Source: Escherichia coli (lineage in GTDB: Bacteria > Pseudomonadota > Gammaproteobacteria > Enterobacterales > Enterobacteriaceae). From it: DNA of 64,000 bases. Positions 4,112 to 42,415 of this stretch are shown in pieces. The stretch lies in assembly GCF_002854065.1 (NCBI RefSeq), contig NZ_CP024147.1; one strand, written 5' to 3'. Positions within the stretch are counted from its first letter, which is position 1. Each line of letters begins with the position of its first letter. The notes beneath the pieces were generated by a model that was given only the letters and a program-made list of their open reading frames with translations, searched no databases and was not told where the DNA came from. The position numbers and the translations under genes are program-made.

Positions 4112-5526
4112 CTACCCATCTGGTCTGGTTTCGCCAGGATTTACGTCTGCATGATAATCTCGCGCTGGCTGCCGCCTGCCGCAATTCGTCTGCACGCGTG
4201 CTGGCGTTGTATATCGCTACACCACGCCAGTGGGCGGCGCATAATATGTCGCCGCGTCAGGCTGAACTTATCAATGCTCAACTGAACGGGCTACAAATCG
4301 CGCTGGCGGAAAAAGGCATTCCTTTATTGTTCCGTGAAGTGGATGACTTTGCCGCCAGCGTCGAAATAGTTAAACAGGTGTGCGCGGAAAACCGCGTTAC
4401 TCATCTTTTTTATAACTATCAGTATGAGGTGAATGAGCGGGCGCGGGATGTGGAAGTTGAAAGAGTGCTGCGTAACGTGGTGTGTGAAGGATTTGATGAC
4501 AGTGTGATCCTGCCGCCTGGCGCGGTGATGACTGGCAATCATGAGATGTACAAAGTCTTTACGCCTTTTAAGAATGCCTGGCTGAAACGGCTGCGGGAAG
4601 GGATGCCGGAGTGCGTCGCTGCACCAAAAGTTCGTAGTAGCGGATCGATAAAGCCCGCGCCATCCATTACGCTGAATTATCCTCGTCAGTCTTTCGATAC
4701 TGCGCATTTCCCGGTGGAAGAAAAAGCGGCGATTGCGCAATTACGCCAGTTTTGCCAGAACGGTGCCGGAGAATATGAGCAACAACGAGATTTTCCGGCA
4801 GTGGAAGGCACCAGTCGTTTGTCCGCCAGCCTGGCAACGGGCGGGTTATCGCCTCGCCAGTGTTTGCATCGCCTGTTGGCGGAACAGCCGCAGGCGGTGG
4901 ACGGTGGGGCCGGTAGTGTCTGGCTTAATGAGCTGATCTGGCGCGAGTTTTACCGTCACCTGATAACGTATCACCCCTCGTTGTGTAAACATTGTCCGTT
5001 TATTGCCTGGACGGATCGTGTGCAGTGGCAGAGCAATCCCGCACATTTACAGGCCTGGCAGGAAGGCAAAACGGGATACCCGATTGTCGATGCTGCCATG
5101 CGTCAGCTTAATAGCACTGGCTGGATGCATAACCGGCTGCGGATGATTACAGCCAGTTTTCTGGTGAAAGATTTATTGATCGACTGGCGCGAAGGCGAGC
5201 GGTATTTCATGTCGCAGCTGATTGATGGTGATTTGGCAGCCAATAACGGTGGCTGGCAGTGGGCGGCTTCTACGGGTACTGATGCAGCGCCGTATTTTCG
5301 TATTTTCAACCCGACAACCCAGGGCGAGAAATTTGACCGCGAAGGCGAGTTTATCCGCCAGTGGCTACCGGAACTGCGCGATGTACCGGGGAAATCGGTG
5401 CATGAGCCGTGGAAGTGGGCTGAGAAAGCAGGTGTGAAGCTGGATTATCCGCAACCGATAGTCGAGCACAAAGAGGCGAGAGTACAAACGTTGGCAGCGT
5501 ATGAGGCGGCGCGGAAGGGGAAATAA
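4108..5526 (+). CDS. phr: Deoxyribodipyrimidine photolyase
   Basis: 472-aa ORF; N-terminus MTTHLVWFRQDLRLHDN and FAD-binding C-terminal region characteristic of photolyase. Confidence 0.95.
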   Translation: MTTHLVWFRQDLRLHDNLALAAACRNSSARVLALYIATPRQWAAHNMSPRQAELINAQLNGLQIALAEKGIPLLFREVDDFAASVEIVKQVCAENRVTHLFYNYQYEVNERARDVEVERVLRNVVCEGFDDSVILPPGAVMTGNHEMYKVFTPFKNAWLKRLREGMPECVAAPKVRSSGSIKPAPSITLNYPRQSFDTAHFPVEEKAAIAQLRQFCQNGAGEYEQQRDFPAVEGTSRLSASLATGGLSPRQCLHRLLAEQPQAVDGGAGSVWLNELIWREFYRHLITYHPSLCKHCPFIAWTDRVQWQSNPAHLQAWQEGKTGYPIVDAAMRQLNSTGWMHNRLRMITASFLVKDLLIDWREGERYFMSQLIDGDLAANNGGWQWAASTGTDAAPYFRIFNPTTQGEKFDREGEFIRQWLPELRDVPGKSVHEPWKWAEKAGVKLDYPQPIVEHKEARVQTLAAYEAARKGK

Positions 5527-7340
<1,814 letters not shown>

Positions 7341-28781: not shown

Positions 28782-29650
28782 TGTCCATTTTAATTGATAA
28801 AAACACCAAGGTTATCTGCCAGGGCTTTACCGGTAGCCAGGGGACTTTCCACTCTGAACAGGCCATTGCATACGGCACCAAAATGGTTGGTGGCGTAACT
28901 CCAGGTAAAGGCGGTACTACCCACCTCGGCCTGCCGGTGTTCAACACCGTGCGTGAAGCTGTTGCTGCTACTGGCGCTACCGCTTCTGTTATCTACGTAC
29001 CAGCACCGTTCTGCAAAGACTCCATTCTGGAAGCCATCGACGCAGGCATCAAACTGATTATCACCATCACTGAAGGCATCCCGACGCTGGATATGCTGAC
29101 CGTGAAAGTGAAGCTGGATGAAGCAGGCGTTCGTATGATCGGCCCGAACTGCCCAGGCGTTATCACTCCGGGTGAATGCAAAATCGGTATCCAGCCTGGT
29201 CACATTCACAAACCGGGTAAAGTGGGTATCGTTTCCCGTTCCGGTACACTGACCTATGAAGCGGTTAAACAGACCACGGATTACGGTTTCGGTCAGTCGA
29301 CCTGTGTCGGTATCGGCGGTGACCCGATCCCTGGCTCTAACTTTATCGACATTCTCGAAATGTTCGAAAAAGATCCGCAGACCGAAGCGATCGTGATGAT
29401 CGGTGAGATCGGCGGTAGCGCTGAAGAAGAAGCAGCTGCGTACATCAAAGAGCACGTTACCAAGCCAGTTGTGGGTTACATCGCTGGTGTGACTGCGCCG
29501 AAAGGCAAACGTATGGGCCACGCGGGTGCCATCATTGCCGGTGGGAAAGGGACTGCGGATGAGAAATTCGCTGCTCTGGAAGCCGCAGGCGTGAAAACCG
29601 TTCGCAGCCTGGCGGATATCGGTGAAGCACTGAAAACTGTTCTGAAATAA
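28781..29650 (+). CDS. sucD: Succinyl-CoA synthetase alpha subunit
   Basis: 289-aa ORF; N-terminus [45 protein letters not shown]. Confidence 0.97.
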
Positions 29651-29750
29651 ATATCTGTAATAAGAAATAGCCCTCGCCGCTTCCCTCTACAGGAATGGCG
29701 AAGGGCTGTCGGTTTCGACATGGTTGGCCATCGTATGATGGCCTTTTTTA
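29651..29750 (+). ncRNA. sdhX: Candidate SdhX (RybD)-type 3'UTR-derived sRNA ending at the sucD terminator
   Basis: Sequence shows two hairpins after the sucD stop, the second (ggccatcgtatgatggcc + T-run) a rho-independent terminator; SdhX is known to derive from the sucD 3'UTR in E. coli; the sRNA sequence itself is not verified from memory. Confidence 0.45.
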
Positions 29751-30316
29751 TGCCTTAAACGGTTAACCACGGTCGAAATCTGACTGCAGGCTTGACTGCA
29801 TGACCACAGCCACTGTGGATTGCCGCAACCGACCGCAAGCCACGAATAAGAACGACGGCGAATTTCGAATCGTTACCTGATGCACTGGCTTCCCAGCGTT
29901 TGACCGTAGCGTTAAGTAAATCAACAAAAGCGATGTTCACCGCTTTTCGTCAAGTCGTGCCATTTGTCAGCCAGGATCGGGTCTTTACCCCGGATATTGC
30001 AGCATCGCAAAAATTCTTAGAGGGATATGCTATAAATCAAAAATAAAATCTTTGTTGATTGTTTATCATAATATCCACAGATATGATAAATGATATCAAT
30101 TTAATAATTTTCACTTAATGTGATTCCGGATAATTCGAAAGGCGCTGTGCTTTTCGGATTATTATTATCTGATTAAGATATTTGTCACGCCAGGCTTACT
30201 GGTTTATAAATGTCAATCATGATTCTTATAAATTATTTATTGCTGCTTTGGTTACCATTACTTCGTAATAAGTAATGTATTTTTGATTGTTTAAACTATT
30301 TTTAAGGGACGGCATT

Positions 30317-30418
30317 ATGCGAGGGAAAATACCTAAAACGGAACTGCTGGTGACTTTTGAGGTCGTCGCACGTCATGAAAGTTATACCAGAGCGGCAGAG
30401 GAGTTAGCGTTAACCCGG
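30317..30418 (+). pseudogene. LysR-type transcriptional regulator, N-terminal 34 codons only, truncated by IS1
   Basis: MRGKIPKTELLVTFEVVARHESYTRAAEELALTR resembles the LysR winged-HTH start; the reading frame runs into the IS1 terminus and stops on IS1 sequence. Confidence 0.6.
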
Positions 30419-30431
30419 TAATGACTCCAAC

Positions 30432-30935
30432 TTATTGATAGTGTTTTATGTTCAGATAATGCCCGATGACTTTGTCATGCAGCTCCACCGATTTTGAGAA
30501 CGACAGCGACTTCCGTCCCAGCCGTGCCAGGTGCTGCCTCAGATTCAGGTTATGCCGCTCAATTCGCTGCGTATATCGCTTGCTGATTACGTGCAGCTTT
30601 CCCTTCAGGCGGGATTCATACAGCGGCCAGCCATCCGTCATCCATATCACCACGTCAAAGGGTGACAGCAGGCTCATAAGACGCCCCAGCGTCGCCATAG
30701 TGCGTTCACCGAATACGTGCGCAACAACCGTCTTCCGGAGCCTGTCATACGCGTAAAACAGCCAGCGCTGGCGCGATTTAGCCCCGACGTATCCCCACTG
30801 TTCGTCCATTTCCGCGCAGACGATGACGTCACTGCCCGGCTGTATGCGCGAGGTTACCGACTGCGGCCTGAGTTTTTTAAATGGCGGAAAATCGTGTTGA
30901 GGCCAACGCCCATAATGCGGGCGGTTGCCCGGCAT
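30432..30935 (-). CDS. insB: IS1 InsB (C-terminal transposase domain, expressed as InsAB' by -1 frameshift)
   Basis: 167-aa ORF …[47 protein letters not shown]… matches IS1 InsB. Confidence 0.95.
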
Positions 30936-31129
30936 CCAACGCCATTCATGGCCATATCAATGATTTTCTGGTGCGTACCGGGTTGAGAAGCGGTGTAAGT
31001 GAACTGCAGTTGCCATGTTTTACGGCAGTGAGAGCAGAGATAGCGCTGATGTCCGGCAGTGCTTTTGCCGTTACGCACCACCCCGTCAGTAGCTGAACAG
31101 GAGGGACAGCTGATAGAAACAGAAGCCAC
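30854..31129 (-). CDS. insA: IS1 InsA (transposition inhibitor / N-terminal part of the InsAB' transposase)
   Basis: 91-aa [46 protein letters not shown]… matches IS1 InsA. Confidence 0.95.
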
Positions 31130-31184
31130 TGGAGCACCTCAAAAACACCATCATACACTAAATCAGTAAGTTGGCAGCATCACC

Positions 31185-31655
31185 CACCACGATTTGCAAA
31201 ATTTCATTGTGCGCCATGGCATCGACAATGCTGGTGGGGAAAGCATGCGAAATAAATACTTTTAGCGTAAAGGGTTCTGCCGCGACCACTCCGGTGGTTT
31301 CGGCACCGTGTGCAACAAAATTAATTCCTGTACCTGGCATGAAGAAATTTACCGTTATCAAGCCTAAGGCAATTGACAGCAATGAGGCGCAAATAAATAA
31401 AAAGAGTGTTTTAGAAAAAATACGACCAAGGGCTTTGGCATCGCCCATTTTAGCAATACCTACCACCAGGGTAGAGACCACTAACGGAGCGATAATCATT
31501 TTTATCAGTCGTAAGAAAATCGTCGTGAATATCGATATTTCTTGCGCATAGAGTTTTGCGGTTTCCGGTGAAGCAGTGTTATTGAGCACTACGCCGATAA
31601 TCATTCCAAGTACCAGCGCCAAAAGAATCATCGTGGTTAAACTTATTTTCTTCAT
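31185..31655 (-). pseudogene. Glutamate/dicarboxylate:cation symporter (DAACS family, GltP/DctA-like), N-terminal ~157 codons, 3'-truncated by IS1
   Basis: IFLRLIKMIIAPLVVSTLVVGIAKMGDAKALGRIFSKTL… aligns with the GltP N-terminal region; GGAGG RBS before ATG at 31655; the ORF continues into IS1, where it terminates. Confidence 0.8.
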
Positions 31656-31815
31656 TTTTTCCTCCATCAGGTGCACGGCGATAAATCAGAATCAGGAGAA
31701 GTAGATGCCTGAATAGAGATTCAGGCATCTACCTGCTATTACAACCTTACAAATAGCTGAAGTGTTGAACTGCAATAAGTGACGGGATGTCAGTTGGCTA
31801 AAAGTATTCGGATTT

Positions 31816-32133
31816 TTACAAATCGAAACTCATATTTAATAAAGGTGCATGTTGCTGTGCACCATAGACATCATTGTCACCTACATTCCCGGAGATAATA
31901 TCTCGTGGCATGACGATTTTTACTGCGTTAGAAGGATCAAACCAGACAATACGATGAATAAAGTCAGGTTCAACATGATATAAGCGCGCAATCAGTTCTG
32001 GGGTTAATTGCCCTGATGATTTAACTCGCTCATAGTTTTCTTTCGTTTTAAATAAAATATCTAAAACCAGTTCGTAAGGTCCGGCATTTTTCGAACGAAT
32101 GACTTGCGCCAGTGAGACAATTGACTGTTTCAT
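31816..32133 (-). CDS. DUF4387-family protein (105 aa), function unknown
   Basis: Small ORF translationally coupled (ATGA overlap) to the upstream DUF1446 gene; family assignment is from memory of the AtuA-partner family. Confidence 0.6.
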   Translation of the reverse strand: MKQSIVSLAQVIRSKNAGPYELVLDILFKTKENYERVKSSGQLTPELIARLYHVEPDFIHRIVWFDPSNAVKIVMPRDIISGNVGDNDVYGAQQHAPLLNMSFDL

Positions 32134-33500
32134 GCCTGAACTCCTTCTGGCGTCACCTGTTCAATATGGAAATCAAAACGCAGAGCGTCGTTGGCTTCAA
32201 TCAGGTGATATATGGAAAATTCGTATACCGGCCCGCCCTGGATATCAGAAGGGGAGAACGGGAACGCCAGGTTGCCTGCGGTAGCGATGCGGTTTTCATA
32301 GCCGTAGTGCAGCATGGTAGAGCGCACCAGCGAGCAAACGCTATTGGCAATTTCCTGGGTCGGTGCAACTACATCAAGGACAATCCCCAGCTCATGCCCG
32401 GCAGTTTGCATCGGTTCATGGTCGCCCATCACCCCGTTTTTACCGTACAGGTGGAAAATGATGCGAATGCTGTCATCGTCTAACGACAGGTTACGCGAAA
32501 CGCTGGTTTTGACTTCATCGATGATTTTATCGATCCCGGCGATCATGATCGGGTCGCGCGTTCCGGCGATGGTCAGACAGCGGAAGCCCACCCGTCGCGC
32601 ACCTTCCAGTTTCAGGGCATACGGCGTTTCTTCATGCTTAGAACCGCTGACGTACACTTCGCCGTCATTGACTGCTTTAAATGTGCAGCCTTTCAGGTTC
32701 AACACGCCGCCAGGTCCTGGCAGGAAGTAGGGATCGGATTTCTCATACAGTGTGTGTGCAGCTGCTGACGTTTCGGTAAATTTACGCTTCGGATTAAATG
32801 TCTTCAGCGTAAAGCCGTTGTCATCAATGATGCCCATCGCACAGTCAGAGCCTGAGCCGGGCGTTGCGGCGATTGCTGCGCACTCAAGGATTTTCCCACA
32901 ATGCAGCGCCAGACCTTCATCAAAGCCTTGCATGATCGGTAGCGCAGCAAAGCAGGCCGGGTCGTAAGCGCGCCCACCCAGCACCACTTGCGCGCCTTCT
33001 TTCAGCGCCCGCTGGAAGGGTTCGATGCCCATTTGCGCGACGATATACGTACTTTCGTCAATCGCGTCGTGGGTTAACGGCGGGACAAAATCCAGCGCCG
33101 TGATTTTGCCGTTATCCAGCGCCTGGTGGACGATGGCTTTGTCAACGTCTGCCGGGATCAACGCCATCGAGAACGAGAGGTGCTCTTCCTGGGCAATCTC
33201 ATGAATTATTTCTCGGCACCACTCCAGGTGTGGTGCGGCACCAGAACCGCCAGCCGTTCCGATCACCACCGGTATATTATTTTGCACGCCTGCGGTGATC
33301 ATATAGCGCAGATCGCGCTTGACCCCTGCGCGATCGGTAAACGGTTTGCCTGCCCCGAGGTAGTGGGGGCCTGGATCGGAAGAGCCTGCATCAACGGCGA
33401 TCAGATCGGGCGATTCTGCCATCGCTTTACGGAAGCTCTCTTCCGGGAATCCATACCCGAGGATTGCCGTTGGCGATAAGACTTTAAAAGAACGAGCCAT
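32130..33500 (-). CDS. DUF1446 / AtuA-like protein (456 aa), function unknown
   Basis: ORF immediately downstream of the methylaspartase gene (3-nt gap); AtuA-like assignment from sequence recollection, not a search. Confidence 0.6.
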   Translation of the reverse strand: MARSFKVLSPTAILGYGFPEESFRKAMAESPDLIAVDAGSSDPGPHYLGAGKPFTDRAGVKRDLRYMITAGVQNNIPVVIGTAGGSGAAPHLEWCREIIHEIAQEEHLSFSMALIPADVDKAIVHQALDNGKITALDFVPPLTHDAIDESTYIVAQMGIEPFQRALKEGAQVVLGGRAYDPACFAALPIMQGFDEGLALHCGKILECAAIAATPGSGSDCAMGIIDDNGFTLKTFNPKRKFTETSAAAHTLYEKSDPYFLPGPGGVLNLKGCTFKAVNDGEVYVSGSKHEETPYALKLEGARRVGFRCLTIAGTRDPIMIAGIDKIIDEVKTSVSRNLSLDDDSIRIIFHLYGKNGVMGDHEPMQTAGHELGIVLDVVAPTQEIANSVCSLVRSTMLHYGYENRIATAGNLAFPFSPSDIQGGPVYEFSIYHLIEANDALRFDFHIEQVTPEGVQA

Positions 33501-33503
33501 TTG

Positions 33504-34745
33504 TTAATCCTTAGCCTGCAACAGCGCGATAGTACGATTCATTTCGTTGAAGACGATATCGAGGCCTTCGTCAAAACCCATCCCTGGTTTTACCAGCATA
33601 CGCATAGGGCGAGCGGCAAGGGCGACGTGGACACAGGTGCGGGCACTAACATCAGTTTCATTGCAGGTGCCGCCCTGGTACGCTTCCATGCTGTGGCTGT
33701 TGCAGTAAAGAACCGCATCGACGATGTTGTGAATACTTCCAAGATCCGGGGTTTTGATTTGCACCATGTGACAACTGGCGGCATCAGTGAAATCAACAAT
33801 ATCCTGGTAGGTGTTACACCATTCATCGGCCACAATTTTCACGCCGGAACCGAGGCGCGTCAGCTCTTTGGTAATCGCGGTCAGCAGGCGAATTTGGTCG
33901 GGCTTGTTACCGGCATCGACCGGCCCTTCAATGTAGAGCGGCAGGCCTTGCGCTTCTTTTTCCAGGCTGGCGATGTATTGCGCACAGCGAAGCGGATCCA
34001 TATCGAAGATCAGACCGATAGTGCCGTATACATCGATGTGCAGGGTAGGGTGGTAGCGTGCGCTGGTGCGCTTGCTCAGAATGCGATCCGACAGCCAGCG
34101 GACATATTCGCGCAGTTTTTCACCTTTAAAGCCCAGCTTCTCTTCGACGTTATTAATCAGCGCATGGGGCAGCACGTCGATGCCCTTAAGGATCATCTTA
34201 TCGACGGCGATATATCGATCGTCGCCGCTCTGGCCAAATAATGGAATGGATTCCGCCACGTGTGGCAACTGCCATTCATCACAGACCACTTCAGTTTTCA
34301 GACGGCCGGTTGCCAGCGCAGTAGCATCAAGCAGCGCCTGTGATAATCCGTAGCGCACGGCGGTATGCAGCAAGTTGCCGTCAATACGCAGTTTGTCGAA
34401 GAAACGGGCATTCGGCAGGAAAGCATCCACATCGCGGCCTACCAGTAATGGCTTGATATGGTCGTTGAGGAACGGAATAAAGTGCTCTGCGAGGAACAGT
34501 GGATCGCGACCACCTGCCCCGGAATACTGTACGGCAGCACAGTCACCTACAGCGACCGCGCCGTTTTCCAGAATCAACTGTACCGATACGCACTCCCCGG
34601 CCTGACGAACGGCGTTAAACCCCTGTGTTACCGGCTCCCCGGTATAAAAAAAGCCGTCATGACCCGCTCCGTTTTTTATCGCCTGCTGGTCATCGAAATA
34701 GAATGAGGAGTAGCCAGCGGTGAACAGAGCCTGTTTTATTTTCAT
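33504..34745 (-). CDS. mal: 3-methylaspartate ammonia-lyase (methylaspartase, enolase superfamily)
   Basis: 413-aa ORF; strong similarity to clostridial methylaspartase as I remember it (…FYFDDQ.AIK.GAGHDGF.YTG…CAAVQYSGAGGRDPLFLA…HMVQIKTPDLG…). Confidence 0.9.
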   Translation of the reverse strand: MKIKQALFTAGYSSFYFDDQQAIKNGAGHDGFFYTGEPVTQGFNAVRQAGECVSVQLILENGAVAVGDCAAVQYSGAGGRDPLFLAEHFIPFLNDHIKPLLVGRDVDAFLPNARFFDKLRIDGNLLHTAVRYGLSQALLDATALATGRLKTEVVCDEWQLPHVAESIPLFGQSGDDRYIAVDKMILKGIDVLPHALINNVEEKLGFKGEKLREYVRWLSDRILSKRTSARYHPTLHIDVYGTIGLIFDMDPLRCAQYIASLEKEAQGLPLYIEGPVDAGNKPDQIRLLTAITKELTRLGSGVKIVADEWCNTYQDIVDFTDAASCHMVQIKTPDLGSIHNIVDAVLYCNSHSMEAYQGGTCNETDVSARTCVHVALAARPMRMLVKPGMGFDEGLDIVFNEMNRTIALLQAKD

Positions 34746-36190
34746 TATGGTCTTTCTATTAATTTACTGTGGGATACAGCATTGATGTCATCTACAACCA
34801 TCTGGAATGTCGGTTGGCGTCCTTCAAAGCGTGCGCGTTCCGCGACGTAATCGTGGTGGAGGTCGAGAATATCTTTTGGCAATGGAACGGCTCCGGCTTC
34901 CAGTACGCGTATCGCGCCGGTGTTGTCACGGACCGGAAGAATATTGCCCGCGTTGCAGGCGGCTGGCGCAAACGGCACATCCAGTACGCCCGCTTCAAAT
35001 GCCAGCACCGTACCGCGCGCAATATCACCATTACCCAGTTCGAACACTTTATTCAGTACCGCGCGAACCTCGCTCTTAATCAGTTCAATTTCCAGTTCAA
35101 CCGCAGGGCACGGCGGGAATTTCTGCTCATTGACCATGTTGAGCATCTGGCGGGAGGCTTTCAGCCCCTGAATGTTGGCAGCGGCAGTCGGGATACCCCA
35201 GGCTTCGTGCGGACTTTTGGTGATGACTTTGGTGGCACCAGACATCCCCGCGACGGCTGCGCCCCAGGAGATAATAGCGAACGCTTTCGATTCGTCTTCC
35301 GGAAAGCCGCCCATCCACTGGTGAAACACGGTACTCAATTCATAGTCGGTATAGCCATAGCTCTGAAAGTATTCGTGTGCAAGTTCACGCAGAGACTGGA
35401 TCGCCGCAACATCCTGCGTCAGGCTGCCGACCTGGCCATAACCAACGGTGATAGATTTCACACCCTGTTCCAGTGCCAGCAAGCCTTCGATTATCGCGAT
35501 AGAGTGCGAGATAAACGGCGGGATCAGCGTACCCGTTAGTGGGCCAAACGGTTCGCGGTTGATGCGGATCCCGTGTTCTTCATACATCCCCATTAAACGG
35601 TCGCAGTACTGCCAGTCGCGGATCGATTTTTCCAGCGTTACGCGTTTGGCATACGGAATGTTGTAGGAAATGCCACCGCCTTCATAACTGGTAAAGCCGC
35701 TGGCCATTGAGATTTCAGCCAGCAGACGCGCATCTGGCGTGCCGTGGCGGATCTGTAGCGGTTTTTGCAGGGTTTCGGTGAGGCGACGGCAAGCTGCGAC
35801 ACCATGGTTAACTACCGGTAAACCGTTCAGTTTAGAGGTTCCGGCTTCGATGGATTTTTTAATCCCTACAGCCGCTTCTTCGTACCGATTCAGACGGGTA
35901 TATGCATCGATGGTGCTTGGCAGCAGATCGCACTCTTCTTGTAGTGTTTTCAGCAGTTCGATGTGTTCGTCCATCAGCGCCACACCTGCGCGCGGTTGGC
36001 TAAGGGTTTTACCTTCCTTGTCTGCTTTCAGCAGCGCAAGAGAGAAGCGTTTATGCTCAGGGATGGTTTGTTGGTATTTAACGCCATCTTCAAAGATTTC
36101 AACATCCTTGCCGGTTTCCCAGGTTTTCAGTACCTGTTGCCGCTCGGTCATGAATTCGTCATGGGTTAATTTCTTATTTCGAAGTTCCAT
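34745..36190 (-). CDS. glmE: Glutamate mutase E subunit (methylaspartate mutase epsilon chain)
   Basis: 481-aa ORF, 1-nt stop/start overlap with mal; size and position match GlmE/MutE. Confidence 0.85.
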   Translation of the reverse strand: MELRNKKLTHDEFMTERQQVLKTWETGKDVEIFEDGVKYQQTIPEHKRFSLALLKADKEGKTLSQPRAGVALMDEHIELLKTLQEECDLLPSTIDAYTRLNRYEEAAVGIKKSIEAGTSKLNGLPVVNHGVAACRRLTETLQKPLQIRHGTPDARLLAEISMASGFTSYEGGGISYNIPYAKRVTLEKSIRDWQYCDRLMGMYEEHGIRINREPFGPLTGTLIPPFISHSIAIIEGLLALEQGVKSITVGYGQVGSLTQDVAAIQSLRELAHEYFQSYGYTDYELSTVFHQWMGGFPEDESKAFAIISWGAAVAGMSGATKVITKSPHEAWGIPTAAANIQGLKASRQMLNMVNEQKFPPCPAVELEIELIKSEVRAVLNKVFELGNGDIARGTVLAFEAGVLDVPFAPAACNAGNILPVRDNTGAIRVLEAGAVPLPKDILDLHHDYVAERARFEGRQPTFQMVVDDINAVSHSKLIERP

Positions 36191-36208
36191 TGATTGCAGC
36201 CTTAATTG

Positions 36209-37597
36209 TTATAGGGTTAAGCATTGAATACTGGTGCGCGCGGCGGCCAGCGGATCGACTCTGGCGACGTTTGCCAGCAGTGGTAATAGCCCCCGGGAAT
36301 CGCGGTAATATTCAAATTCGGTCGGTAAGAGAATGCGTTTACCGTCGTCGTTTAACTCGCGGTATTTCAACCAGTGATGCATATCGAACTGACTGGCACG
36401 CGAGAGCCATCCGCCGGATCCGACGACTTTACGCACGGTTGTCAGGTCACGTCCCATCTGTAAATCGACATTGCCGACGCAGGTGCAGACCTCTTTTTTG
36501 GTGCCCGCATGTCTTTCGGTGGCATAACCCACACACAGTCCGGCCAGGACGGTATCGAAATATTTCTCTTCTGCATTTGCGGGTAAGTAGTCGGGATGAG
36601 CGACTAGATGACGGAGGTAATGATAAAAAGCGTCCAGCTGTGCGGGTTGCTGAGCAAAATTCACATTGACTAACTCTTTCGCACTTTCACCAACCACCAC
36701 TGCCGAGACGCGCATTCCCAGATCGCCTTCCACCGTCCGTTTTACGAAGGGTTCCGGTACGCCGTGTAAAACGGTGTCGGGCGAGAGCGTGTTGGCACAG
36801 GCGGAATAAACATCGGTGGTTGCGCCGCCCATGTCGATCAGCATGAACTCTTTCCAGCTGTGATCGACGTTACTGATTGCCTTGACCAGTTCAAAGACCG
36901 TCCATGGTGTCGGCATTGGTTCTTCGCCTGTTTTATCAACAATGACATCCAGCCCTTTCCCTTTAACGATGCGTTTAAGGAATATGTCGCAAATAGCCTG
37001 GCGTGCGGCTAAAGGGTTCGGATGGTCAAGATCGGGCAGAACATTGTCGACGATGGTCAGGTCTTTATGCCCGAGGATCTCCTGCACCTCGTCCTGAATA
37101 TCCCGGTTTCCGGCATAAATAATGGCGCAGTCGAGTTTGGATTCTGCCAGCACACGGGCGTTATTCAGTCCGTAGCTTTCTTCTCCGCCGTCGGTGCCGC
37201 CGGTGAACAAGAGAATATCGGGCTGCGTTTCTTCCAGTGCCTGGATATCACGGCGGTTCAGCTTGTAGGCGTAATATTGCGCAATTTTAGCACCCGCAGA
37301 GTGAGCGGTTACTTTCGCGGTTTCCAGGGTGATAGAAGGCACCAATCCCATTGCGGCAACCGCCAGCCCACCTTTGGCAGAGGAGGAATACTTCAATGCA
37401 ACCTCACCGCTGTTTAACAGGGGGAGGGCATTATCTACGTTTAACACCTGGTTCAGGCTGGAGAAAAACCCCTTCGCCAGATGATGGGTGGTGGTTGGGG
37501 TCAGTACGTGGTTAACCAACGTTAACGCGTCCCCCTCCCGGGTGAAGAGGGCTGCTTTGGTCCACGTCGATCCAATATCGACAGAGACGATTTGCAT
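36209..37597 (-). CDS. glmL: Glutamate mutase-associated protein GlmL/MutL (ASKHA-fold ATPase-like)
   Basis: 462-aa ORF between glmS and glmE, as in clostridial glutamate mutase operons. Confidence 0.8.
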   Translation of the reverse strand: MQIVSVDIGSTWTKAALFTREGDALTLVNHVLTPTTTHHLAKGFFSSLNQVLNVDNALPLLNSGEVALKYSSSAKGGLAVAAMGLVPSITLETAKVTAHSAGAKIAQYYAYKLNRRDIQALEETQPDILLFTGGTDGGEESYGLNNARVLAESKLDCAIIYAGNRDIQDEVQEILGHKDLTIVDNVLPDLDHPNPLAARQAICDIFLKRIVKGKGLDVIVDKTGEEPMPTPWTVFELVKAISNVDHSWKEFMLIDMGGATTDVYSACANTLSPDTVLHGVPEPFVKRTVEGDLGMRVSAVVVGESAKELVNVNFAQQPAQLDAFYHYLRHLVAHPDYLPANAEEKYFDTVLAGLCVGYATERHAGTKKEVCTCVGNVDLQMGRDLTTVRKVVGSGGWLSRASQFDMHHWLKYRELNDDGKRILLPTEFEYYRDSRGLLPLLANVARVDPLAAARTSIQCLTL

Positions 37598-38046
37598 CAG
37601 ATAGCCTCTTCAAGAATACGAGTATCAACGTCATGACGTTGGTTGATATCGTGGGCCATCAGCTGACAAACATCTTCTAAGTCATGACTTGGGGCAAAGA
37701 CGCGATCAAATCCCATCTCTTTGAATTTGGTTTCCACGTCAGCGAAGTCATGTTTTCCGACCACCAGGTTACCGCCCACATAGAGCAGGATGTCCCCCAG
37801 TCCACGCTCGATGCAGCGTTCGCGCATGCCCAGACAGTCGATATCGCCATGCCCATAGATAGAGGAGACGACAATCGCGTCAGCGCCAGTTTCAATGGCC
37901 GCATCAATATATTCGTCCTGGCTGACCATTACGCCCAGATTAATGACTCTGAAGTCGTGGTTGCTAAAAACGCGGTCCAGAACTTTATTGCCTACTGCAT
38001 GGCAGTCCGCGCCAATAACGCCAATCACAAGTGTTGCTTTCTTCAT
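37597..38046 (-). CDS. glmS: Glutamate mutase S subunit (B12-binding sigma chain)
   Basis: About 149 aa from [24 protein letters not shown]…; cobalamin-binding DxHxxG motif (ADCHAVG); TGATG overlap with glmL. Confidence 0.9.
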
Positions 38047-38592
38047 GGGTAATCCTTTGTAAGACAGAGAGTAAAATAAGTTACACACGTCGTATTTATG
38101 GCCGTTCATAACGGCACAGGTTTAATATCACAGGAGTGTCTTTATCTGACCGTAATGTTGCAATTGATCTATTTTCAAAATGTCTTTCGGGAAATGATTG
38201 TTTAAAGTGTGTTTTTAAATTCCCATGTTAATTCAGTATGTTATGTCAACTAATGTCATGAATGTTAAATTTTTAAAATTAACTTGATTTAATGTATTGA
38301 GATAATTGTGATCTACTTCTAATTTGCATTTTAGTGATATGGGTTTAGCCATGAGTAAATGCATTTCATAAAATTTAAGTCGAATTTCACTGCAATTCAT
38401 CTCTGCTTAATGTAAAAATAATGTTGAAAATAACAAATGGTTAATGATTCATGCGAATTATGACGTTAGTTAGCTCTTTTGATTTTTCGTAAAAAAGAGA
38501 GGTACATGAAGGTGCTACCAGTATGAGTAACGTTAATCAAAGGTTTTATTACGTCTGGCAATAACGCAGGCCATTTTCGCGACTGGGTGGAT

Positions 38593-39015
38593 TTAATCAG
38601 TATAATCCTCATACAATATTTCAGGATTAACTGAACCGTTAACCGGGTTTTGGTGTTGAAATTTAGAAATGGCGGAGTCAATCAATGAAGACAGTATCGA
38701 AAAAATAACTGTGTCAGAACTAATTTCAATTAATCCTTCTCGTTGTTGACCAAAAAAGATATTTATCTTGATTTCATTTGTACTACGGCAATCAATATGT
38801 AGTAATTTTTGATCGCTGAGATTTTCTGTTTCATAAATGTTTTTGGCGATAGTCGGATGTATTGATGCCAGACATCTGCTCAGATAAGCCAGATCCTTTA
38901 GGGAACACCCCGCTGAGTAGAGGATGTCAGAGAATTTTTGTGTGTCAACTGTTGTCTCTGAAGCGTATGTTGCATTGACAGGAAGGGTGTTGAAAGAGAT
39001 TTGAGATGGGATCAT
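38593..39015 (-). CDS. Hypothetical acidic protein (140 aa) in AT-rich segment
   Basis: ORF in a strongly AT-rich region; no recognisable motif. Confidence 0.5.
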   Translation of the reverse strand: MIPSQISFNTLPVNATYASETTVDTQKFSDILYSAGCSLKDLAYLSRCLASIHPTIAKNIYETENLSDQKLLHIDCRSTNEIKINIFFGQQREGLIEISSDTVIFSILSSLIDSAISKFQHQNPVNGSVNPEILYEDYTD

Positions 39016-39096
39016 TATTTAAATCTTTCCGTGAGTAATAAAAATTAATCCCCAGGCATTGTTTAACAATATTTGCCATAGGGGATATATAGAAAA

Positions 39097-40041
39097 TTAA
39101 AGTATTTTATTGGCTTCGGTTAACTGATCTATAACCAGTGCCAGATTGGTAAACATTTTGAAAAAGCGATACTGGCTCGGAATATCTCTTTCAAAGACGA
39201 AACATTCAAGGTCATTGTTTGAAAAATAAAGGACTAGTGTTGCTGATTCGTCAGGGAAAACATGGAAATGTATCTGGTTACCAGAAGGAGGATAGTCCAG
39301 AAGAAGGGTATCTTTGCCCGTCACATACCTGTTGTTGTCGTGGACGCTACGCTCACACTTCATCAGAGGTGTCAGGATACTCATGTATTCATCTGATGTT
39401 AATTTATTAAAATCATCATTCATTTTAAAGAAACGATAAAGTAACAGTACATCCTCTTGCGTAACCGGTTCGTTTGTTTTTAGAGGGAAATAAGCGGGAA
39501 CCAGAAGATGAGGTTCTAATCTATTTTGTTGAGCGCTATAACTGAATTTGAACATAAATTCCGGATCGCTCATCAATTGAGCGACATAATTATGCCTGGC
39601 TTCGAAAATTTTAATTTTTATCAGGTTAAATAAGTCTGTTTCGTCATCCTGTATTAAAAGACATTGGCCATAGCAGCCAGGCTTTTTTTCATTATAAGCA
39701 GAAACGGTTATTCTGTCAGAGGTGTCAACGTTATATTCAAAAGCCAGATAGTGACCTTCTTCATCGCGATTTGTTTCCAGGTTATTTAAATTCATCACAT
39801 GAAGTGTTTGCAATGCTGATTCAATGAGCTGTTGACTCTCTGAGGTAAATGTTTCGCGCTGCGTTGTATAAAGTGTATCAATTCCAACGACTATCCGATG
39901 TGGGTCAAGGATGGCGGCAATCATCTTTATTACCTGCACAGTCACGGGTGATGTCATTGATTCTTTATCTGTTTTTAGAGAATCATTAGATGGCCAACCT
40001 GAGAAGCGATTGACAGCCGAACCGATATTATCAGGACTCAT
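39097..40041 (-). CDS. Hypothetical protein (314 aa) in AT-rich segment
   Basis: ORF with Ser/Asn/Pro-rich N-terminus, no transmembrane segments, no recognisable catalytic motif; co-directional with the 140-aa ORF. Confidence 0.55.
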   Translation of the reverse strand: MSPDNIGSAVNRFSGWPSNDSLKTDKESMTSPVTVQVIKMIAAILDPHRIVVGIDTLYTTQRETFTSESQQLIESALQTLHVMNLNNLETNRDEEGHYLAFEYNVDTSDRITVSAYNEKKPGCYGQCLLIQDDETDLFNLIKIKIFEARHNYVAQLMSDPEFMFKFSYSAQQNRLEPHLLVPAYFPLKTNEPVTQEDVLLLYRFFKMNDDFNKLTSDEYMSILTPLMKCERSVHDNNRYVTGKDTLLLDYPPSGNQIHFHVFPDESATLVLYFSNNDLECFVFERDIPSQYRFFKMFTNLALVIDQLTEANKIL

Positions 40042-40547
40042 AGCAGCAACCTCATTGTAATCAAGCGAGGCGCTGAGCGTACTCGGCTATAGAAAAACTA
40101 ACTTGCAAAAATCGCTCATTTTTCATTTATCAGGCGAAAGTGGTCTCTGTACACTCAGAAACAATCACTCCCGCTAAGTCATACCTGTTTCATCGATACA
40201 TTTAAGTGATTATTACTAATGAAACAATAACATAACGGGCTTACGGTCGGTGCTCATAAAGGCAACAATCAATTAACTTTGATAAAAATATGTTATGTAA
40301 AATAGCAACAAATTGGCTACTCTAATCAATTGGTATTATAAAAAGTGGATAAGGCGGTTCTGTTAAATAAAATACTGGTTTTTTATCTATACCTTTTCAT
40401 TGTAATAATTGTGTTGCATAAATATTTCACAATAAATTAACAATAAAATCACCAATGATCTATGGTTTATACATAATTAACATATTTGGTTGGTTTTGAT
40501 ATAAATCAATTTTTAATTCTTGAAAAAAATCTGCAAAACACGATAAA

Positions 40548-40561
40548 TTGTCGTAGATCAA
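40548..40561. promoter_or_regulatory. Putative FNR/CRP-family site in the cydA upstream region
   Basis: ttgtcgtagatcaa matches TTGAT-N4-ATCAA with one mismatch; cydAB is known to be FNR/ArcA-regulated. Confidence 0.3.
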
Positions 40562-40846
40562 ATTGATGAGATCGTGACAATTTCGCTATAAATTGATCAC
40601 TGTCGAAAAATGCAAATTTGCTCAATAAAAACCTGTTTATTGTAAGGATTTTGCGGCGTAATATAATTACGGGATCAATTTGGTTTATTCATTAACATAT
40701 TTGTAACTTTTTTATCATTGTCTTTTCCTCTTTTGATGAAATGGCAACGATAGGGGCGAGCAAATAATTTTGTATTGGGGCATGCGTGTGACCCTTTCTA
40801 ACGGGGTTCACTCTCGGAGTCTTCATGCGATGAGCAAGGAGTCATG

Positions 40847-42415
40847 ATGTTAGATATAGTCGAACTGTCGCGCTTACAGTTTGCCTTGACCGCGATGTAC
40901 CACTTCCTTTTTGTGCCACTGACGCTCGGTATGGCGTTCCTGCTGGCCATTATGGAAACGGTCTACGTCCTTTCCGGCAAACAGATTTATAAAGATATGA
41001 CCAAGTTCTGGGGCAAGTTGTTTGGTATCAACTTCGCTCTGGGTGTGGCTACCGGTCTGACCATGGAGTTCCAGTTCGGGACTAACTGGTCTTACTATTC
41101 CCACTATGTAGGGGATATCTTCGGTGCGCCGCTGGCAATCGAAGGTCTGATGGCCTTCTTCCTCGAATCCACCTTTGTAGGTCTGTTCTTCTTCGGTTGG
41201 GATCGTCTGGGTAAAGTTCAGCATATGTGTGTCACCTGGCTGGTGGCGCTCGGTTCAAACCTGTCCGCGCTGTGGATTCTGGTTGCAAACGGCTGGATGC
41301 AAAACCCAATCGCGTCCGATTTCAACTTTGAAACTATGCGTATGGAGATGGTGAGCTTCTCCGAGCTGGTGCTTAACCCGGTTGCTCAGGTGAAATTCGT
41401 TCACACTGTAGCGTCTGGTTATGTGACTGGCGCGATGTTCATCCTCGGTATCAGCGCATGGTATATGCTGAAAGGTCGTGACTTCGCCTTCGCTAAACGC
41501 TCCTTTGCTATCGCTGCCAGCTTCGGTATGGCTGCCGTTCTGTCTGTTATTGTTCTGGGTGATGAATCCGGCTACGAAATGGGCGACGTGCAGAAAACCA
41601 AACTGGCTGCTATTGAAGCTGAGTGGGAAACGCAACCTGCGCCTGCTGCCTTTACTCTGTTCGGCATTCCTGATCAGGAAGAGGAGACGAACAAATTTGC
41701 GATCCAGATCCCTTACGCGCTGGGCATCATTGCAACGCGTTCCGTGGATACTCCAGTTATCGGCCTGAAAGAACTGATGGTGCAGCATGAAGAACGCATT
41801 CGTAACGGGATGAAGGCGTACTCTCTGCTCGAGCAACTGCGTTCTGGTTCTACCGACCAGGCGGTTCGTGACCAGTTCAACAGCATGAAGAAAGACCTCG
41901 GTTACGGTCTGCTGCTGAAACGCTATACGCCAAACGTGGCTGATGCGACTGAAGCGCAGATTCAACAGGCAACCAAAGACTCCATTCCGCGTGTAGCGCC
42001 GCTGTACTTCGCGTTCCGTATCATGGTGGCGTGTGGCTTCCTGCTGCTGGCAATCATCGCGCTCTCTTTCTGGAGTGTCATCCGCAACCGCATTGGCGAG
42101 AAAAAATGGCTCCTGCGCGCCGCGCTGTACGGTATTCCGCTGCCGTGGATTGCTGTAGAAGCGGGCTGGTTCGTGGCTGAATATGGCCGCCAACCGTGGG
42201 CTATCGGTGAAGTGCTGCCGACAGCTGTGGCGAACTCGTCACTGACCGCAGGCGATCTCATCTTCTCAATGGTGCTGATTTGCGGCCTGTATACCCTGTT
42301 CCTGGTGGCAGAATTGTTCTTAATGTTCAAGTTTGCACGCCTCGGCCCAAGCAGCCTGAAAACCGGTCGCTATCACTTTGAGCAGTCTTCCACGACTACT
42401 CAGCCGGCACGCTAA
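40847..42415 (+). CDS. cydA: Cytochrome bd-I ubiquinol oxidase subunit I
   Basis: 522 aa from [28 protein letters not shown]. Confidence 0.97.

Follow-up and report, generated by a model that had tools for sequence, protein, structure and literature searches.

A gene pair downstream of the methylaspartase gene of Escherichia coli very probably encodes the two subunits of the citramalate lyase CmlAB

The closest described system to the locus considered here is the citramalate lyase CmlAB of Raoultella planticola, credited to the laboratory of I. Berg (preprint 10.64898/2026.01.16.699985). Cleavage of (S)-citramalate into pyruvate and acetate appears to be known for that orthologue only, from ligand complexes deposited in the PDB and from in vivo complementation. 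In 2015 one step of the glutamate fermentation cluster was still unaccounted for, namely what becomes of citramalate, and this is the step that CmlAB fills: Kronen & Berg considered that fate unclear, found no explanation in citrate lyase, isocitrate lyase or methylisocitrate lyase, and pointed to a DUF1446 gene downstream of mal in Enterobacteriaceae (PMC4682846). The same authors recorded no citramalate lyase activity in extracts of E. coli O157 and no expression of the cluster under any condition tried; their extract assay mixture lists neither nucleotide nor Mg2+ (PMC4682846), so that an enzyme dependent on a nucleotide would have escaped detection there even with the cluster expressed. 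Two PDB entries released in October 2025, 9ERQ and 9EVF, bear the names "Citramalate lyase subunit A (cmlA) / subunit B (cmlB)", one having AMPPNP and citramalate bound, the other ADP and pyruvate. The preprint of January 2026 then employed cmlAB, obtained as a gift, as a citramalate lyase in vivo: an evolved acetyl-CoA auxotroph of E. coli exhibited mesaconate-dependent growth only with the plasmid, label from mesaconate was found in acetyl-CoA, and both Acs and FumA were upregulated in the evolved strains (10.64898/2026.01.16.699985). A full-text literature search turned up this preprint and the 2015 paper, and did not find the primary CmlAB paper.

The window, by which is meant the whole 64,000-nucleotide stretch of E. 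coli DNA that was analysed, contains the features collected in Table 1. An earlier note made from the letters of this DNA had described a 456-aa and a 105-aa ORF placed 3 nt behind mal and overlapping each other by ATGA; all of these elements were present on reading the sequence, and they lie on the minus strand, for which the note gave nothing. The stop codon of mal (TAA, 33506..33504) is separated from the ATG of cmlA at 33500 by the three nucleotides CAA, while cmlA and cmlB share the four bases 32133..32130. A Shine-Dalgarno sequence stands at the ideal distance from each start codon: cmlA has AAGGA-N7-AUG, cmlB has AAGGAG-N7-AUG. Because the 3-nt gap recurs in 37 loci of the survey reported below and the 4-nt overlap in 42, the arrangement is conserved rather than a product of chance. 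Co-transcription of cmlAB with the glm and mal genes is likely, as the earlier note had proposed. A scan for promoter and terminator consensus sequences inside the cluster yielded nothing above shuffle expectation, counts being at or below that level, and an Rfam search over 29600-40900 gave no match, with no cobalamin riboswitch upstream of glmS.

Table 1. Positions in the window of the cml, mal and glm genes and of the features bordering them
Feature	Position	Strand	Basis
LysR-family regulator gene, first 100 nt, divergent, cut by IS1	30317..30416	+	L001 alignment
IS1 element, 768 bp	30417..31184		blastn of window vs L001
GltP-like dicarboxylate/amino acid:cation symporter, 5' remnant, 157 codons	31185..31655	-	NCBIfam GltP/DctA partial match
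Perfect 15-bp stem, 4-nt loop, between cmlB and symporter gene	31700..31733	-	fold of 31815..31677
cmlB, citramalate lyase small subunit (very probable), 105 aa	31816..32133	-	Pfam DUF4387
cmlA, citramalate lyase large subunit (very probable), 456 aa	32130..33500	-	Pfam AtuA/DUF1446
mal, methylaspartate ammonia-lyase, 413 aa	33504..34745	-	NCBIfam TIGR01502, 544 bits vs cutoff 286
glmE, glutamate (methylaspartate) mutase subunit E	34745..36190	-	NCBIfam TIGR01503, 862 bits
glmL, mutase accessory (reactivating) protein	36209..37597	-	NCBIfam NF040745, 510 bits vs cutoff 475
glmS, B12-binding mutase subunit S	37597..38046	-	NCBIfam NF002612, 253 bits, residues 22-168

At the upstream end of the cluster, the longest glmS ORF starts at 38109 and would code for 170 aa, as against the 149 aa of the RefSeq gene starting at 38046, a difference of 21 codons; the shorter start is supported because the NCBIfam match begins at residue 22. 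The 149-aa annotation is that of RefSeq for strain CUWW06, the sequence of which is identical here. Between glmS and cydA lie two further minus-strand ORFs of 140 and 314 aa (38593-40041), labelled hypothetical by RefSeq, in a stretch with a GC content of 35-37% compared with about 53% in the cluster. Neither had an NCBIfam match, and a Pfam search conducted on the 314-aa ORF gave none.

Pfam profile searches upheld the DUF1446 (AtuA) and DUF4387 assignments previously proposed for the pair: the cmlA product matched AtuA (PF07287) across residues 63-392 with E 2.8e-18 and a modest 66 bits, and the cmlB product matched DUF4387 (PF14330) with E 2.9e-39. No NCBIfam family, TIGR01502 methylaspartase included, was matched by either protein. 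Comparison with the PDB aligned CmlA with chain A of 9ERQ/9EVF over its full length (residues 1-456 on 1-456) at 92.5% identity (422/456; phmmer E 4.8e-293), and CmlB with chain B at 84.6% identity (88/104; E 5e-57); the fold predicted for the E. coli pair is the same as that of solved CmlAB. The locus combines full-length CmlA homology, a downstream DUF4387 subunit and a location in a glm/mal cluster, three features of a CmlAB-type pair. Because sequence and fold match CmlAB, the operon position is conserved, and the Raoultella orthologue functions as a citramalate lyase in vivo, the two ORFs are very probably E. coli cmlA and cmlB, the former coding for the large and the latter for the small subunit of an (S)-citramalate lyase of heteromeric type. 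They are plain orthologues in the same conserved operon, and the function is one already described rather than new.

Two opinions of the earlier note are consequently superseded. Its statement that neither family has an assigned function is outdated, since 9ERQ and 9EVF name near-identical proteins CmlA and CmlB and the preprint uses them; and what it ranked as the strongest candidate in the window for an undescribed function had been described by the PDB entries of October 2025 and the preprint of January 2026. For E. coli, the functional assignment derives from the names and titles of those entries and from the one preprint using the genes. Among the pathway roles then suggested, citramalate cleavage stands, whereas mesaconate hydration falls to FumD (or FumA/FumB) and mutase maintenance to GlmL; no CoA esters appear to be involved.

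Conservation of the pair was surveyed with one genome per species and with search patterns derived from the query, a design that covers the Cml clade as distinct from the whole AtuA family. This species-level scan returned 61 loci with CmlA relatives at 49-99% identity. By tblastn with the cluster proteins, mal was adjacent to cmlA in 58 of the 60 loci that were informative, GlmE was present in 58/59, and CmlB lay directly downstream of CmlA in 58/59, the exception being a split cmlA in Yersinia aldovae. The clusters range beyond Enterobacterales into Aromatoleum/Azoarcus, Telmatospirillum, several Bacillota and Dictyoglomaceae. Within the species itself, 1125 of the 5426 complete E. coli genomes contained cmlAB and 1135 contained the glmS-mal segment; when at least 80% of the query was required, both counts became 1121/5426, so that the two distributions are near-identical and the co-conservation with glm and mal that the earlier note had wished to see surveyed is evident at both scales. 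The glutamate fermentation cluster is carried by about a fifth of E. coli genomes, most O157:H7 strains included.

Gene order varies in the more remote clusters. In a Bacillota MAG (L056) it reads glmS-glmL-glmE-cmlA-cmlB-mal-fumarate hydratase alpha, and in Desulfotomaculum copahuensis (L062, 907-4444) glm-mal-cmlAB comes after genes for the conversion of histidine to glutamate (hutI, ftcD; imidazolonepropionase, glutamate formimidoyltransferase and a cyclohydrolase), with a sigma-54 PrdR-like regulator following the cluster; the latter arrangement suggests that histidine is funnelled through the methylaspartate pathway in this organism. No CitDEF-type lyase was present among the flanking ORFs scanned in these two loci. 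The loci with no glm or mal nearby numbered two, one on a 3.8-kb contig (L055) and the other in a deltaproteobacterial MAG (L057). Around the cmlAB homologues of this MAG (4661-6381; 55% and 54% identity), the 4.6 kb upstream and the 3.4 kb downstream contain no glm/mal genes; the neighbours are Fe-S/flavoprotein genes, one ORF being polyferredoxin-like and the other a flavodoxin-like reductase. There may here be another source of citramalate, or another substrate. On contigs assigned to a 'Citrobacter sp.' MAG (L003) and a 'Collinsella sp.' MAG (L004), the proteins of the cluster are 98-100% identical to the E. coli proteins of the window; these contigs are probably misbinned E. coli DNA.

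It was against these domains and neighbours that other identities for the pair were weighed. AtuA has been tentatively assigned as an acyclic terpene utilisation lyase (PMC4847356), and the Pfam AtuA match, taken with an analogous chemistry in which acetate is released from a tertiary beta-hydroxy acid, could be read as making the E. coli pair a lyase of that type. This is scarcely credible: the Pfam match is modest, the neighbours are glm and mal genes with no atu genes nearby, and the solved near-identical protein holds citramalate and pyruvate. In addition, the fused relatives P0227 (621 aa) and P0258 (608 aa), which possess a CmlA-like N-terminus and a DUF4387 C-terminus, share only 37-40% identity with CmlA, and the fused AtuA-type proteins do not conserve the ATPGSGSDC loop (residues 212-220) that never varies within the Cml clade. 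The window proteins are members of the Pfam families to which AtuA belongs, but they are not AtuA proper.

Operon position taken by itself would be equally compatible with a mesaconate hydratase, a glutamate mutase maintenance factor or a second methylaspartase, and some NCBI records of homologues are indeed named '3-methylaspartate ammonia-lyase'. That any of these is correct is nevertheless extremely improbable. Mesaconase is FumD, a biochemically characterised class I fumarase of 550 aa coded for by a separate gene in intact clusters, and neither Pfam nor NCBIfam detected an Fe-S fumarate hydratase domain in the pair; reactivation of the mutase is the task of GlmL; and the true Mal is the product of the upstream gene, which has the TIGR01502 match that the pair lacks. 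The methylaspartase name given to homologues was itself flagged as unexplained by Kronen & Berg (PMC4682846). All four alternatives (AtuA terpene lyase, mesaconase, mutase chaperone, methylaspartase) were accordingly rejected, and the identification as CmlAB was retained.

In the methylaspartate pathway, GlmSE (with GlmL) converts glutamate into methylaspartate, Mal yields mesaconate and the class I fumarase FumD (or FumA/FumB) forms (S)-citramalate; on that identification, CmlAB would accomplish the final step, cleavage into pyruvate and acetate, with neither CoA nor an acyl carrier protein. The AMPPNP/citramalate and ADP/pyruvate crystals would place a nucleotide at or near the active site. 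Its most likely role would be the transient phosphoryl activation of the C4 carboxylate of citramalate to an acyl phosphate, so that the acetate moiety could depart as a viable carbanion; with the phosphoryl group handed back to ADP afterwards, the net reaction would need no ATP. Phosphoryl activation is suggested because direct cleavage would expel the carbanion of free acetate, because classical lyases use a thioester, and because complexes with AMPPNP and ADP exist; a catalytic nucleotide with no net use of ATP is favoured because the preprint treats the reaction as reversible and acetate-sensitive, with free acetate entering via Acs. An allosteric or a structural role for the nucleotide is also conceivable, as is consumption of ATP.

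Consumption of ATP would take the form either of a cleavage to pyruvate, acetyl phosphate and ADP, with acetate kinase/Pta recovering the energy, or of plain ATP hydrolysis. AMPPNP in the substrate complex and ADP plus pyruvate in the product complex are what would be expected if the gamma-phosphate left with the acetate moiety, and acetyl phosphate is a possible released product; consumption is nonetheless considered unlikely, because the preprint gives pyruvate and acetate as the products, with Acs upregulated, and because its concern that acetate would thermodynamically disfavour cleavage makes no sense for an ATP-hydrolysing reaction (10.64898/2026.01.16.699985). The favoured reading thus remains a nucleotide that is regenerated within the catalytic cycle.

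CmlB (DUF4387) is probably an obligate partner domain and not a carrier protein: it co-crystallises with CmlA, and its counterpart is fused to the C-terminus in AtuA-type relatives. Across a set of 26 homologues, CmlA exhibits the glycine-rich and acidic invariant motifs D37-x-G-S-x-D-P-G-P, G84-G-x-G and G176-R-x-Y-D-P, together with H200-x-G-K-I-L-E-C, H249-x-x-Y-E-K and T407-A-G-N, and every position invariant in that set is present in the CmlA of the window. To judge from this conservation, the motifs are candidate nucleotide, metal and substrate sites. That the nucleotide is a true mechanistic participant, with C-C cleavage proceeding via an acyl phosphate, possibly with release of acetyl phosphate and perhaps throughout the superfamily, is advanced as a tentative and still rather doubtful proposition. 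The extent of that superfamily is indicated by 6595 CmlA relatives at E<=1e-5 among 8000 scored candidates, and by 1162 CmlB-matching clusters at 50% identity. Were the acyl-phosphate chemistry to hold superfamily-wide, a new class of nucleotide-dependent, acetate-releasing lyases would be defined and the long-tentative role of AtuA settled.

The cluster in this strain is a recently truncated version. In strain CUWW06 and in O145 strains, cmlB is followed by the gene for a GltP-like symporter, fumD, cobO and a divergent LysR regulator gene, whereas in the window an IS1 element replaces 4021 bp, a segment in which related strains have cobO, fumD (mesaconase), most of lysR and the 3'-terminal two thirds of the symporter gene. 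On the left, window bases 30072-30416 correspond to 5120-5464 of the locus L001, in which the LysR coding sequence starts at 5365; on the right, the symporter remnant aligns with L001 9486-9956, the L001 gene having 426 codons. The right junction, IS1-symporter, was found in none of the 5426 complete E. coli genomes, and in the same genomes the left junction gave two full-coverage matches, both of them joined pieces and not the same junction. All six genes from glmS to cmlB are intact, and over bases 31185-40000 the window shows 100% identity with CUWW06, a strain in which the cluster is complete; the deletion is therefore considered recent. The intergenic sequence 31815..31677, within which the hairpin of Table 1 is located, folds at -38.5 kcal/mol (z -4.7 versus shuffles), and no classic T-run follows the hairpin; the latter is possibly a partial terminator or a stabiliser of the mRNA 3' end.

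Having lost regulation, uptake and a dedicated means of adenosylating cobalamin, the pathway may be idle in this strain, although mesaconase activity could come from FumA/FumB. A more extreme interpretation, that the genes are here functionless remnants of a decaying island, draws on what IS1 has removed (regulator, cobO, fumD, most of the transporter gene), on the absence of the junction from the complete E. coli genomes searched, and on events elsewhere in the species, mal and glmL being frameshifted in O145 strains and expression of the O157 cluster never having been observed (PMC4682846). It is a possible but disfavoured interpretation, given that glmS-cmlB is intact and identical to CUWW06 and that FumA/FumB can supply mesaconase; moreover, it concerns the physiology of one strain and not what the genes encode, for which the assignment as cmlAB is unaffected. 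For E. coli O145 RM9872 (L002, 11805-15904), the annotation lists mal and glmL as pseudogenes with frameshifts, but cmlA, cmlB, glmE and glmS as intact. Some lineages have a decaying cluster.

Public annotation lags behind these developments and is correctable. RefSeq labels are still 'AtuA family protein' and DUF4387, and the name "citramalate lyase" occurred nowhere among the best 120 matches listed. The NCBI records P0002, P0059 and P0072 attach the name '3-methylaspartate ammonia-lyase' to CmlA homologues, a misannotation noted by Kronen & Berg in 2015. The residual value of the locus accordingly lies in correcting its annotation and in the mechanistic question of the role of the nucleotide.

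Set beside the known systems, the pair shares with the classical CitDEF lyase of Clostridium tetanomorphum (with CitC/X/G; Buckel & Bobi 1976) both its net reaction and its position in the pathway, but has no kinship with it in sequence or fold, no acyl carrier subunit, no genes for making a prosthetic group and no acetyl-thioester cycle, a nucleotide being bound instead. No CitE/CitF homology, CitD acyl carrier protein or citC/citX/citG was matched by NCBIfam, none is annotated in the 22-kb region, and the CmlB fold is not ACP-like: CmlAB, with a fold otherwise unrepresented in the PDB, is a non-orthologous replacement of the CitDEF-type, ACP-dependent clostridial complex. With ATP-citrate lyase and succinyl-CoA synthetase it may have in common, to judge from the AMPPNP and ADP complexes, the use of ATP to activate a carboxylate ahead of C-C cleavage. 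AtuA-type proteins resemble it in their Pfam families (AtuA plus DUF4387) and in the analogous acetate-releasing C-C cleavage of a tertiary hydroxy acid proposed for them, but consist of one fused chain of about 600-620 aa, have a CoA ester as substrate and belong to an atu-cluster context with geranyl-CoA carboxylase genes, whereas the window pair is split and in a glm/mal context. R. planticola CmlAB agrees with the E. coli pair in having two genes of 456 and 105 aa, in predicted fold and in position after mal in a glmS-glmL-glmE-mal cluster, and differs in that the host here is E. coli and that the flanking fumD, cobO, lysR and symporter genes have been deleted from the window via IS1.
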